From NCBI GenBank assembly GCA_965217865.1, contig CBDCJO010000002.1:1984001-2048000 (forward strand): a stretch of 64,000 nucleotides of DNA, in the 5' to 3' direction. Under the pieces are notes generated by a model that was not told the origin of the DNA, searched no databases, and was given only the letters and a program-made list of their open reading frames with translations. Position 1 is the stretch's first letter, and the number at the start of each line of letters is the position of its first letter. Both the position numbers and the translations under genes were made by a program. Positions 824 through 15,686 of the stretch are shown in pieces. Source of the DNA: Candidatus Latescibacterota bacterium. GTDB lineage: Bacteria; Latescibacterota; UBA2968; SICM01.

Positions 824-952
824 CACGGCACCCCCGGCTCCGGCGCATTCGTGCCGTCGCCAAACCTGCCTTTCGCGGACACGGCGCTTGCTTTAAGGAC
901 AAAATCTGGCGCAACCGCCGCGCCGCTCGGCAGGTTCGTGGGTGCCGAGAAC
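824..952 (+). other. attC-like site with both core sites replaced by IS ends
   Basis: Imperfect palindrome C-ACGGCACCC...GGGTGCCG-AGAAC with the same short-left/long-right spacer design as the other attC sites in this window. Confidence 0.65.
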
Positions 953-1345
953 TACATGCGGAATGTCAAGAGCAAGGTTGACGATTTCGAGGTTGGATGA
1001 GATTTTTTATGCCGGTTTTCTCAGCGTCAAGGGGTGTAAAGTGGACATTCTTACTATGTTCGGAGCGCAGTTCGCCCTTATGGTGCAGGACCGGTCTTTG
1101 AAGAGGGGCGAAGCTCCCGTGTGGGGGGTGGTGTCTTCCGATACCAACTTACATCCGCGGCCGGCACTCTTGTTTGTGTGAGTAGGTGTGCCGGTCTTCG
1201 CGCATTTTCTAATCCGATCCAGGAAGACGGGGAGGCCTGCGGATCTGTTAGCCGAAGCGACTCCTATCGGAGCCCTCCTCTCAAGCCAGTTCTGCAGGCC
1301 GCCCCCGGCCGCCTTGTTCAGGCGGCACTCTTGTGTAACCGATCG
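952..1345 (-). mobile_element. Orphan right end (non-coding region) of the IS at 3361-5275
   Basis: Near-identical inverted copy of ~4910-5275 (about 3 substitutions by eye over 952-1318). No transposase is attached. Confidence 0.9.
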
Positions 1346-2827: not shown

Positions 2828-3301
2828 TTAGCTCCTGCGCCATATTTGATAGGTGTAATCAATATTCGATTGAAATTCTTGAGTAAACACCAGGGAGAAC
2901 CCATCCGGTATATCTGGAAAAAACACGTCGCCATCAACCTCGCAATGTACAGTAGATACATGTAATGTATCTGCCTTGTGAATCATGCTATGGTAGACTT
3001 GCCCACCACCAGCTACAATCAGATGATCTGTAAGGGTTGACATTGCACTGAGCGCATCGTCAATCGATGAGAAAGCCCGGATTCTATTCGATTCCTGCAA
3101 CGCATCCGAATTTGTCAGGACTGCATATTTCCTGTTTGGAAGTGTTCCCATTGACTCAAAAGTCTTGCGTCCGACCAACAACCATTGGTTATAAGTCAGG
3201 GCTTTAAAAAAGAGCTGCTCACCCTTTGCCTTCCATGGAATGTTCGGCCCAGCGCCGATAACCCGATTATCGGATTTTGCTCCAATGAGTGAGATAATCA
3301 T
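2828..3301 (-). CDS. dfrA: Dihydrofolate reductase, DfrA1-like trimethoprim-resistance family
   Basis: 157 aa with [43 protein letters not shown] and YQIW blocks. Preceded by cassette core GTTAGGC (3360-3354). Confidence 0.92.
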
Positions 3302-3484
3302 TTGTGGAAAACCTCAAGATGGGTTGGTTGGGTTTTGCTTTTAAGCCAGTTTCGCCTAACGATTTCTATATTGAGTAAAGGAGGAAAAAACAGCGTTGAG
3401 GGGCTGAATCTTCCCTTGCAAGGCAAGGTGTCTTAAGATTCGGCAAGCGCAAGCAAACTCAACCCTCAACGCTGGAGGTATACG

Positions 3485-4816
3485 ATGAAGTCGAAAATCT
3501 TCCACCTTAAACGACAGGCCATCTCCCAGAATTTCGTCCTCGGGATCGATCCGGGCAAGGAAAAACACAGCGGGTCGGTGCTCGATCCCTCCGGACTTCA
3601 GCAAGGCGGGGCCTTCTCATTCCCCGTGACGCGAGCGGGATATGACCATACCCTCTGGCAGCATCTGGAGCGACGCATCAAAGATTGCGGGCCGGATCGG
3701 ATGGTGGTGGCCATCGAGACGTCCTGCAATCTGTGGGTTACCCTGGCCCACTACCTCCAGGGGAAGGGGTATCGCGTGCTGCTGGTGAGCCCCCTCACGA
3801 CGTATCACGCAAGACCGATGATGCACCGCGATTTCTCCAAGTCGGATCCCAGGGATGCCTTTCTGGTGGCCGACAGCGCACAGAAGGGAAGCTATGATCT
3901 CTTCAGGACGTTCGAGCCTCACATGGAGGCCGCGCACCAGCTCTCAATCGCCTACGACAAGCTCCGGAAGGACCTCACAAAGTCCCTGCTCCGCACCCGG
4001 TCTCTGATGGAACGCGTCTTCCCGGAGTTCCTCCACGCGGTCAACATTCGTACGAAGACCTCCCGCTACCTGTTGGAGCGATATTTCTTGCCCCGCCACT
4101 TCGAGGAAATTGACATCGAAGAGGAGGGCCGCCAGATCCATCGGATCTCAAGAGGCAGTTACGGGGTGGCGACGCTGCAGAAGCTGAAGGAGGAGGCCCG
4201 GACCTCCATCGGGATCCCGGTCGAGGGCCAGGAAGATGTCCTCCGCATCATCCTGAATGGCTGGATCGAGGCGCTCCGGCGGACCGAGACGCAACTCAAA
4301 GCTGTGGAGCAGGCGATGATCGCCCGCACTCAGCAGGATCCGACTTTCCAAATCGTCGACTCGATCTCCAACATCAACAAAAACCTGGCTGCCCAATTTA
4401 CCGCGGAGACGCGAGGGGCCACCCGCTTCACCCACTTCAAACAGATCGAGAAGCTCGCCGGCACGAACGTGCGCATCGCCGACTCCGGAAAGTACAAAGG
4501 CAAAAGGCGGATGAGCAAGATCGGCAATCCCCGGCTGCGGCGAATCATCTACCAGATGACCGAACAGACCGCCCGGGTCGTGCCCCAGGTCCGCCGCCGC
4601 TTCCTCGAACGCGAGCTCAGGAAGAAGTGCTACCGCAAGAATATCGTGGCCGCCTCGTCCCAGCTCCTACGGCTCATCGTAGCCCTGCTCAGAGAAAATC
4701 GTCTCTACGAGGAGAGAGACCACCCCGCGGCATCCCTCAAAACGCTCGAGAGGCGCTACATGAAGCGCTACAAGAAAAAGCAGCATCCCCGACGGCGCGC
4801 TCGCGCCGCCGCCTGA
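3485..4816 (+). CDS. IS110-family recombinase/transposase
   Basis: GIDPGK, AIETS, KSDPRDA (DEDD) and C-terminal DSGK...SKIGNPRLR; RBS GGAGG. Confidence 0.95.
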   Translation: MKSKIFHLKRQAISQNFVLGIDPGKEKHSGSVLDPSGLQQGGAFSFPVTRAGYDHTLWQHLERRIKDCGPDRMVVAIETSCNLWVTLAHYLQGKGYRVLLVSPLTTYHARPMMHRDFSKSDPRDAFLVADSAQKGSYDLFRTFEPHMEAAHQLSIAYDKLRKDLTKSLLRTRSLMERVFPEFLHAVNIRTKTSRYLLERYFLPRHFEEIDIEEEGRQIHRISRGSYGVATLQKLKEEARTSIGIPVEGQEDVLRIILNGWIEALRRTETQLKAVEQAMIARTQQDPTFQIVDSISNINKNLAAQFTAETRGATRFTHFKQIEKLAGTNVRIADSGKYKGKRRMSKIGNPRLRRIIYQMTEQTARVVPQVRRRFLERELRKKCYRKNIVAASSQLLRLIVALLRENRLYEERDHPAASLKTLERRYMKRYKKKQHPRRRARAAA

Positions 4817-4899
4817 CCGCTGCCGCGGTCACACTCGCTCTTTGACATCGCTGCTCGATTCACATCCGGTGCAGTCTCCTGCCGGACCGGTTACACAAG

Positions 4900-5200
4900 C
4901 TGCCGCCTTCCAAGGCGGCCAGGGGCGGCCTGCAGAACTGGCTTGAGAGGAGGGCTCCGATAGGAGTCGCTTCGGCTAACAGATCCGCAGGCCTCCCCGT
5001 CTTCCTGGATCGGATTAGAAAATGCGCGAAGACCGGCACACCTACTCACACAAACAAGAGTGCCGGCCGCGGATGTAAGTTGGTATCGGAAGACACCACC
5101 CCCCACACGGGAGCTTCGCCCCTCTTCAAAGACCGGTCCTGCACCATAAGGGCGAACTGCGCTCCGAACATAGTAAGAATGTCCACTTTACACCCCTTGA
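4900..5200 (+). ncRNA. Putative bridge/seekRNA in the IS right-end non-coding region (boundaries approximate)
   Basis: Two stems with internal loops (GGCCTGC 4927/GCAGGCC 4987 and GTCTTCC 4999/GGAAGAC 5088). The region is conserved in a second copy. Confidence 0.6.
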
Positions 5201-5274
5201 CGCTGAGAAAACCGGCATAAAAAATCTCATCCAACCTCGAAATCGTCAACTTTGCTCTTGACTTTCCGCATGTA

Positions 5275-5338
5275 GTTCAGCTGGCCCCGACGCCGCCGTA
5301 AGGCGGTGTTTGGATTTTCCGGGGCCAGCGTGTTAAGC
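5275..5338 (-). other. attC site, R'' side; its R' (3354-3360) was separated by the IS
   Basis: GGCGCTTAAC is exactly complementary to the cassette start GTTAAGCGCC at 6097; stem GCTGGCCCCG/CGGGGCCAGC. Confidence 0.85.
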
Positions 5339-15612: not shown

Positions 15613-15686
15613 TGCCGGGTCGTCTAACGGCAAGACTGCGGCCTTTGGAGCCGCCTATCGAGGTTCGAATCCTCGCCCGGCAACCA
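15613..15686 (+). tRNA. tRNA-Gln (UUG)
   Basis: Acceptor stem TGCCGGG/CCCGGCA, anticodon arm GCGGC-CT-TTG-GA-GCCGC, T-loop GTTCGAATC, encoded CCA. Confidence 0.96.

Follow-up and report, generated by a model that had tools for sequence, protein, structure and literature searches.

An IS110-family insertion sequence at an integron attC site, with a predicted two-loop guide RNA downstream of its transposase gene

What brings a mobile element to the R' end of an integron attC site? The question is raised by a discrete 1,915-bp insertion sequence (IS) in a Candidatus Latescibacterota genome of 6.43 Mb and two contigs, one of which is termed C2 below. The element lies on the + strand of a 64,000-nucleotide (nt) stretch, hereafter the window (GenBank assembly GCA_965217865.1, contig CBDCJO010000002.1, positions 1,984,001 to 2,048,000), and spans window positions 3361-5275, with the junction G counted at both ends. 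A preliminary description, made from the sequence of this stretch, had presented it as an IS110/IS1111 element whose 3' region holds a guide RNA aimed at the attC core. Our comparative analysis makes it very probable that this is an IS110-family IS inserted at the R' end of attC, and that its 3' region encodes a conserved two-loop RNA predicted to serve as bridge RNA or seekRNA for its DEDD recombinase. At the level of sequence, we document the ends of the element, its attC context, the fold of the RNA and the covariation of three of its strands with DNA.

Element ends and attC context

A BLAST search of the element's own genome returned seven full or near-full copies with 99.2-100% identity, along with nine shorter matches, and the flanking DNA varies from copy to copy. 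The right end is common to all seven long copies and the left end to six, which are matched over bases 1-1915; the remaining copy begins at base 13, so that its left end is 12 bases short. Since several copies share common ends, both ends are fixed at the positions proposed in the preliminary description, where the junctions CCTAAC-G-ATTTC (3355) and CATGTA-G-TTCAG (5266) are indeed found. Between these ends and the transposase gene, non-coding DNA amounts to 124 nt on the left and 459 nt on the right.

The element sits in an integron attC site, at its R' end. The left flank, GCCTAAC at 3354-3360, and GTTAAGC at 5332-5338 pair with each other and enclose a G+C-rich stem, which makes up an attC hairpin, and the dihydrofolate reductase cassette gene next to it is encoded on the opposite strand, so the IS is antisense to the cassettes, as had been proposed. 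Throughout the genome, TAAC directly precedes 11 of 12 left ends, whereas T at +1 follows all 11 right ends and is succeeded by C or T (Y) at +2 in ten of them; together with the junction G, present on both sides of all full copies, these two bases are all that is conserved in the 11 right flanks. When empty sites were reconstructed, a hairpin closed by TAAC...GTTA was evident at five of the seven full-copy sites and at 8 of 35 sites of relatives. At the attC hairpins of the window, of the other copies and of the relatives alike, the insertion position is constant, directly beside the TAAC of the R' box. We take the integrase crossover to lie between G and TT of this box, which would place the IS 1-2 bases away from it.

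A simple attC motif (TAAC...CGAA) proved unspecific, as a control motif gave more matches, and a hairpin-based finder was used instead; this crude tool, which counts both strands, scored 138 attC-like hairpins scattered across the genome. No integron integrase exceeded the TIGR02249 cut-off in the same genome, where the best match is split in two pieces (C2:1657178-1657988) and is devoid of profile positions 181-234.

A conserved two-loop RNA and its predicted guide strands

To place the element among its kin, we collected 171 relatives in a protein search, the 120 listed being 43-99% identical. Scans with an alignment as query further yielded 54 loci in species-representative genomes and 80 metagenome loci; a single-protein query of the genome contigs gave no match, and the alignment was needed. 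The genome loci belong mostly to metagenome-assembled genomes (MAGs) labelled Nitrospirota, Ignavibacteria, Bacteroidota, Calditrichota and others, and the metagenome loci include unbinned contigs. A 9-nt left-end motif, with up to two mismatches allowed, lies upstream of the transposase gene in 117 of 136 records and is preceded by TAAC in most of them. On the other side, a right-end profile aligned 63 right ends, all with CTTGAC at a fixed distance and finishing in (C/G)AAG(T/C)A-G or a variant thereof; of 28 distinct right ends, 25 terminate in G.

The region downstream of the transposase gene is conserved across this set. Using nhmmer, we matched a segment of ~190 nt (4908-5100) in 113 of 118 downstream records, that is, the window and 112 of 117 relatives, and four of the five records without a match extend for less than 200 nt past the gene. 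RNAalifold, run on a MAFFT alignment of 69 sequences with less than 85% mutual identity, folded a first stem-loop of 18 pairs, 16 of them with compensatory changes. The outer helix and both helices of a second stem-loop were added to this fold by eye and picked on the same alignment, so the pair counts lean towards them. With this proviso, the resulting 30 pairs in four helices are paired in 91.5% of cases among the 69 relatives as compared with 75.2% in column shuffles, and only in 35-50% when the partners are slid by 1-3 columns. Alignment cells changed on both sides of a pair numbered 361 versus 110 in shuffles, and none of 500 shuffles reached the observed values. The two stems with internal loops of the preliminary description are therefore borne out, whereas its unusually long RNA region shrinks to the ~190 conserved and structured nucleotides of the 459 available. 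One relative from a Neomarinimicrobiota genome (L056, 4359-4566) carries an extra insertion of ~25-30 nt beside the guides in both loops, of which that in loop 1 resembles a G+C-rich hairpin.

Four motifs had been quoted in the loops, namely AGAAC (4934), CTAAC (4976), TAGAAAAT (5016) and GATGTA (5072), and all of them lie where described. Because single 5-mers are expected ~0.45 times by chance in 459 nt, support for a guide function must come from the relatives and not from this sequence alone. We thus defined the ends of the relatives by end homology alone and compared them with the aligned loop columns. Rows were not de-duplicated and the relatives are not independent, and the distinct matching variants number five, eight and three for the three strands that follow.

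The 3' strand of loop 1 contains a 4-mer that reproduces the final four left-flank bases in 84 of 91 rows (TAAC 77, TAAT 3, TACA 2, TACT 1, TAAA 1, each with the same variant in the flank); the other seven rows mismatch mostly by one base. The next base outward, position -5, showed no covariation (0.46 versus 0.42 ± 0.05, P 0.27), indicating a guide of 4 nt, and hence the quoted CTAAC stands in its TAAC part but not in its first C. Similarly, the 3' strand of loop 2 carries a 5-mer that repeats the five right-end bases just inside the terminal one; this identity is seen in 60 of 62 rows and in eight different versions (AAGTA, AAGCA, ATGTA, CTGTA, AAATA, AAGGA, AAGAA, ATATA), which confirms ATGTA within the quoted GATGTA; the two misses (L101 and L123) correspond to right ends truncated at a contig border. 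In loop 2, the 5' strand reads G-A-x-N-A-U, and its N can pair with left-end base 4 in 88 of 90 rows, as A:T (55), U:A (26) or C:G (7). As base x varies and the left end is constant, x is read as a bulge. In the window, 5018-5023 pairs with 3362-3366 and leaves 5020 bulged, which explains why TAGAAAAT had appeared as a near, not an exact, reverse complement of the left end ATTTCTA. In loop 2 and, family-wide, in loop 1, the guides are ordered in the same manner: the complement of the top strand lies on the 5' side and the sequence identical to it on the 3' side. Covariation of the loops with flanks and ends, proposed as a check, therefore holds for three strands; the fourth, which includes AGAAC and is taken up below, is linked to the flank across the family and not above chance in this element.

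The RNA base opposing the junction G varies in both loops, indicating that this G is not read by the RNA. The single-nucleotide core suggested earlier fits the lone G at both junctions and finds no counterpart in the guides; the core of IS621, by comparison, we take to be 2 nt long. In three relatives (L088, L139 and L141) an A replaces the G after the right-end 5-mer, and L088 retains G at its left junction. The two junction bases can thus differ from each other, which bears on whether G is a truly shared core.

Joining the ends in silico through a single G creates TTGACT and TATATT separated by a 17-nt spacer, just as the circle-junction promoter had been predicted. The -35 box in the right end and the -10 box in the left end keep fixed distances in relatives, so both are conserved, and no promoter-like site was found inside the element upstream of the RNA region. 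These features suggest how the element would work. Excision would join its ends through the G, and the resulting sigma-70 promoter would likely drive the transposase gene and the downstream RNA, from whose common transcript the guide RNA is likely cut out. Loop 2 would then hold the donor junction, with ATGTA of its 3' strand pairing with the bottom strand of the right end and its 5' strand engaging the left end, on the top strand, with one base bulged. In loop 1, which would take up the target, TAAC of the 3' strand would pair on the bottom strand of the attC R' box and the 5' strand likely on the top strand of the L' arm. Coordinates of all features are collected in Table 1.

Table 1. Features of the insertion sequence, its predicted RNA and its surroundings (window coordinates)
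Feature	Position	Strand	Basis or remark
Partial second IS copy, RNA region and right end only	952-1341	-	IS bases 1528-1915, 98% identical
Dihydrofolate reductase cassette open reading frame downstream of the interrupted attC, opposite strand to the IS	2828-3301	-	PF00186, E 8.9e-36
Left flank, attC R' box in reverse complement, with TAAC at its end	3354-3360	+	
Whole IS	3361-5275	+	BLAST versus own genome
Junction G, repeated at 5275; candidate 1-nt core	3361	+	G at both junctions, all full copies
Left end: ATTTCTA (predicted to be read by loop 2 5' strand), then -10 TATATT (3368-3373)	3362-3373	+	
Left-end hairpin, 12-bp perfect inverted repeat (3391-3402/3463-3474)	3391-3474	+	read from sequence
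Transposase/recombinase gene, 443 amino acids (aa)	3485-4816	+	PF01548, PF02371, NF033542
Conserved structured RNA, predicted bridge RNA/seekRNA	4908-5100	+	nhmmer; four helices with covariation
Helices P0/P1, loop 1 basal stem	4920-4933 with 4987-4999	+	13 pairs, 11 with both-side changes
Loop 1, 5' strand, presumed right-target guide	4934-4948	+	family-wide link to right flank
Hairpin P2, apical, loop 1	4949-4973	+	8 pairs, all compensatory, 96.8% paired
Loop 1, 3' strand	4974-4986	+	holds guide TAAC
Putative guide TAAC, loop 1 3' strand, equal to last 4 nt of left flank	4977-4980	+	
Helices P3/P4, loop 2 basal stem	5000-5011 with 5084-5093	+	9 pairs, all compensatory
Loop 2, 5' strand	5012-5027	+	holds guide 5016-5023
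Putative guide, loop 2 5' strand, complementary to left-end bases 2-8, 5020 bulged	5016-5023	+	
Variable apical hairpin, loop 2	5033-5066	+	minimum free energy fold; length and sequence vary in relatives
Loop 2, 3' strand	5068-5083	+	holds guide ATGTA
Putative guide ATGTA, loop 2 3' strand, equal to last 5 nt of right end before terminal G	5073-5077	+	
-35 TTGACT in right end	5258-5263	+	CTTGAC at fixed distance, 63 right ends
Right-end terminal ATGTA	5270-5274	+	
Remainder of interrupted attC (L' arm, loop, L'' arm, R'' box)	5276-5338	+	hairpin closed by TAAC...GTTA

The fourth strand and the preference for attC

The remaining strand, on the 5' side of loop 1, was compared with the 24 bases past the element. 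Over 45 distinct guides, the longest exact complement averaged 4.98 nt, a value that none of 2000 permutations reached, as against 3.93 ± 0.14 nt with permuted partners, and matches of at least 6 nt numbered 14 versus 3.1 expected. The matched RNA block mostly lies 4-5 nt before hairpin P2. At sites that fold as attC, such as those of L037, L038, L032, L043, L075 and L102, the DNA that it matches is the L' arm, the stem arm coming first after the R' box. A single common register was sought in 53 guide-flank pairs and none dominates, with z values of at most 3.7 at several registers.

For the window element itself, the 5' strand of loop 1 matched its flanks no better than shuffled guides did (4.36 versus 4.34 ± 0.35, P 0.47), and occupied flanks fared no better than 35 unoccupied attC-like sites (P 0.34). 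The register put forward in the preliminary description (C4938:G, A4937:+1, A4936:+2, G4935:+3, A4934:+4) does give the best Watson-Crick count over the 11 flanks, 41 of 77, which derives from three conserved flank bases only. The pairing of AGAAC with the flank GTTCW is thus indistinguishable from chance, and of the proposed recognition of TAAC-GTTC by an RNA-guided recombinase the TAAC half is retained, as the sequence read by the target loop. The closest relative with a different guide (L086) has an exact 7-nt match to its flank at +3 to +9; the equivalent bases here would be ~4938-4944, and their match is not significant either.

Several points weigh against the main reading given above. 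The right-flank guide of this element does not rise above chance, and among relatives the DNA partner of the same strand starts anywhere from +2 to +8, with no prominent register. The genome contains 547 TAACGTY sites, yet five of the seven full copies reside in attC hairpins, which a 4-nt target guide plus G-T-Y alone cannot explain. No Rfam family matches the RNA (a transfer RNA (tRNA) aside, nothing in the window reached the gathering score), and relaxing the threshold to E values up to 10 between 3300 and 5400 uncovered chance-level matches only. In the protein comparison, the IS1111 type is represented by a single reference, IS4321. As to expression, seven short contigs (173-253 nt) with at least 99% identity to the element were retrieved from four metatranscriptome runs of one study, three of them within 4780-5216 and others partly covering the open reading frame; being of low depth, possibly derived from DNA and informative of neither ends nor strand, they provide no more than a hint. 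The runs concerned (X15, X17, X18 and X22) are labelled sponge metagenome, and nine further runs from several studies hold at least half of the sampled words of the element.

Three possibilities could account for the preference for attC: the complex may sense the hairpin or the L' arm, weak pairings of the 5' strand may add up, or insertions may survive only where attC makes them harmless. The first of these, in its strong form, would have attC chosen mainly through the folded hairpin or L' arm as sensed by the protein-RNA complex, with the RNA contributing just the four nucleotides of TAAC, and we regard it as possible though not the favoured account. It would fit the sparse conservation around the 11 insertions (TAAC, G, +1 T and +2 Y), the failure of the loop 1 5' strand to surpass shuffled guides, the excess of TAACGTY sites over those used, and the variable spacing at which the second guide of relatives matches the L' arm. 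The enrichment on which it leans is a rough estimate, however, given the crude attC finder with its 138 hits, and the insertions may have been retained by selection in harmless sites rather than chosen. Moreover, relatives L086, L088, L147 and L153 show exact guide-flank matches of 7-10 nt, as expected for targeting by base pairs. A far less credible proposal, to which we attach very little weight, dispenses with a guide RNA altogether and treats the 3' region as a DNA or mRNA element, such as transposase-binding sites, a terminator or a stability element, in which the copies of the ends act as DNA. In principle, internal segments identical to the ends could mark repeated protein-binding sites. 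Compensatory changes in four helices nonetheless point to a folded single strand, and one guide strand being the complement and the other of the same sense is the pattern of bridge RNAs and not of repeats; furthermore, the recombinase belongs to a family annotated and shown to be RNA-guided, according to PMC11187229 and PMC11208160.

Family placement and known systems

Would the element simply be an ordinary member of the classical IS1111-attC group, the lineage of ISKpn4, ISPst6, ISPa21 and ISPa25? In favor of this, PMC11187229 describes for that group the same attC target, a long right end with the RNA past the transposase gene, and guide strands arranged in the same order. The protein speaks otherwise, and we hold such membership to be highly improbable. 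Pfam PF01548 (68.1 bits) and PF02371 (55.5 bits) both exceed their cut-offs in the transposase, as does NF033542, 'IS110 family RNA-guided transposase' (154 versus 140 bits). BLASTP against IS4321 of plasmid R751 gave no significant match (E 0.54), and the two are linked by profile-to-sequence comparison only (95% probability, E 2.8e-8); an IS110-family protein of Bacillus mycoides, in contrast, matched with E 2e-36 and 27% identity over 401 residues. Its 443 aa fall outside the 330-350 aa given for IS1111-type transposases and inside the 395-455 aa of the IS110 subgroup (PMC11187229).

Among 72,556 PLSDB plasmids, tblastn found no protein above 28% identity, although at least 5,000 of them carry IS4321/IS5075, which are absent from the 30 records listed for this search. 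Its ten commonest genera comprise Bacillus, Lactiplantibacillus, Streptomyces and other non-enterobacterial groups. ISKpn4-like plasmid elements were sought via IS4321, which returned only IS4321/IS5075. Among the ISfinder proteins supplied as source data with PMC11187229, three N-terminal motifs of the clade (four strings) likewise do not occur; long sequences are stored cut there, but the motifs fall within the first 125 residues.

Sub-terminal inverted repeats, which measure 7-17 bp in IS1111 elements, appear weak here. Over 48 elements, the best end-to-end repeat averaged 6.06 nt as compared with 5.68 ± 0.15 nt in permutations (maximum 6.10), and part of the family has a 6-7-bp A-rich repeat near +15/-21. 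In the window element, exact end-to-end inverted repeats reach 6 nt at most, between left-end base 1 and right-end base -32, and a 7/8 inverted match near +13/-26 was spotted by eye.

By these comparisons, in which IS4321 stands for the IS1111 type and ISKpn4 and ISPst6 enter by description, the protein does not appear to be a classical IS1111 member. The element is best filed in the IS110 family and would work like an IS1111-type seekRNA or bridge-RNA element. Of the double label in the preliminary description, IS110 is thus upheld by the domain hits, and IS1111 is contradicted by protein length and the IS4321 comparison. Judged from sequence, the clade combines an IS110-like protein with an IS1111-like position of the RNA and order of its guides.

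The putative catalytic residues D22, E78, D121 and D124 (the DEDD set) and S334 (Ser of the SG motif) show no variation when the protein is aligned with 38 relatives, and they align with their counterpart stretches in ISCro4, where we take the catalytic residues of that recombinase to lie. Of the bridge recombinases, ISCro4 (E 1.3e-9) and IS621 (E 3.1e-9) matched the transposase mainly in the C-terminal domain.

Comparison with known systems delimits what is new. Siddiquee et al. 2024 (PMC11187229) report RNAs that co-purify with the ISKpn4 and ISPst6 transposases, seekRNAs for ISEc11, ISKpn4, ISPa11 and ISPst6 with a guide order of T then B, some of them 82 nt long, and target matches in the RNAs of ISKpn4 and ISPst6 and the predicted RNA of ISPa25, all three of which target attC. 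The window element resembles these three, as described there, in its one-orientation insertion at one attC end, its RNA downstream of the transposase gene, a top-strand match located 5' of the bottom-strand match, and a circle-junction promoter; it differs in its 443-aa protein, the lack of a close plasmid relative and of clear long sub-terminal inverted repeats, and the origin of its relatives from environmental MAGs and metagenomes. Of the elements in the IS1111 group, 93% have a bridge RNA predicted in the right end by Durrant et al. 2024 (PMC11208160), according to whom the group has a short left end and a long right end carrying the RNA; the ends of the window element, 124 and 459 nt, are built likewise.

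With IS621 and ISCro4 (PMC11208160; PDB 8wt6, 9t56) the element shares a DEDD RuvC-like domain and a C-terminal Ser domain, as well as a single RNA with target and donor loops, each of which is predicted to read the top strand to one side of the crossover and the bottom strand to its other side. Unlike in those systems as described, the RNA is in the right rather than the left end, the strand order within the loops is reversed, the 3'-strand guides, of 4 and 5 nt, are shorter, a single bulged base is conserved in one guide, and the candidate core is a single G unread by the RNA. The IS110-type elements marked green in Fig. 1b of PMC11187229, whose non-coding region lies downstream, also couple a long IS110-like transposase to a 3' region; for this group the paper reports only where the non-coding region lies, and the passages concerned describe no RNA, target or guide. 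ISPpu9 of Pseudomonas putida (PMC12288879), likened here by description, is another IS110-family element in a palindromic repeat with a small RNA (Ssr9) downstream of its transposase gene, and in both cases further copies without the transposase gene occur elsewhere, RNA-only in ISPpu9 and RNA plus right end here; ISPpu9 targets repetitive extragenic palindromic (REP) sequences, the window element attC.

A literature search on seekRNA or bridge RNA, IS110/IS1111 and attC retrieved no paper on the present clade. Since attC-targeting seekRNAs are already published, the finding is an uncatalogued clade of a known mechanism; the clade and its guide geometry are new, and the surprise for specialists is moderate. 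It adds to the RNA-guided IS110/IS1111 recombinases a natural, well-sampled clade with more than 110 relatives whose guides are readable. Its mixture of an IS110-like protein and an IS1111-like RNA layout bears on how the RNA has moved between element ends in evolution, and its 4- and 5-nt guides, conserved bulge and variable-spacer second guide are test cases for the rules of bridge-RNA recognition. It is also a second IS lineage that splits attC beside what we assume to be the integrase crossover point, and such insertions would freeze the adjacent cassettes. A bolder and rather unlikely extension holds that this widespread, uncatalogued IS110-type clade evolved attC targeting independently, its IS1111-style 3' RNA reading the R' box over 4 nt and the L' arm through a variable spacer, and that the second guide has become nearly dispensable here, leaving site choice to the hairpin structure and the 4 nt of RNA pairing; if true, this would be a structure-assisted RNA-guided recombinase.

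Some minor features of the copies and their surroundings are also apparent. The transposase reading frame is intact in four of the seven long copies, frameshifted in two, which share an identical one-base insertion, and interrupted by a stop codon in one; the three broken copies and the one without the first 12 bases map to C2:3464211-3466126, 4977750-4979665, 199954-201861 and 3759593-3761495. Apart from the remnant in the window, a second one consisting of RNA and right end lies at C2:2467856-2468209 (IS bases 1562-1915). An attC-like flank follows each of the two, and on its right side the window remnant has the same flank as metagenome contig L085, whose transposase is 89% identical. The left-end hairpin stops one base short of the ribosome-binding site of the transposase gene, relatives having a different G-rich/C-rich hairpin at this position, and it might serve to prevent expression by read-through from the flanking DNA. 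A 75-aa C-terminal integrase fragment is encoded at C2:4999306-4999473, ~4 kb from one IS copy and ~20 kb from another. Finally, the sole Rfam match at gathering score in the window is a tRNA gene at 15613-15683.

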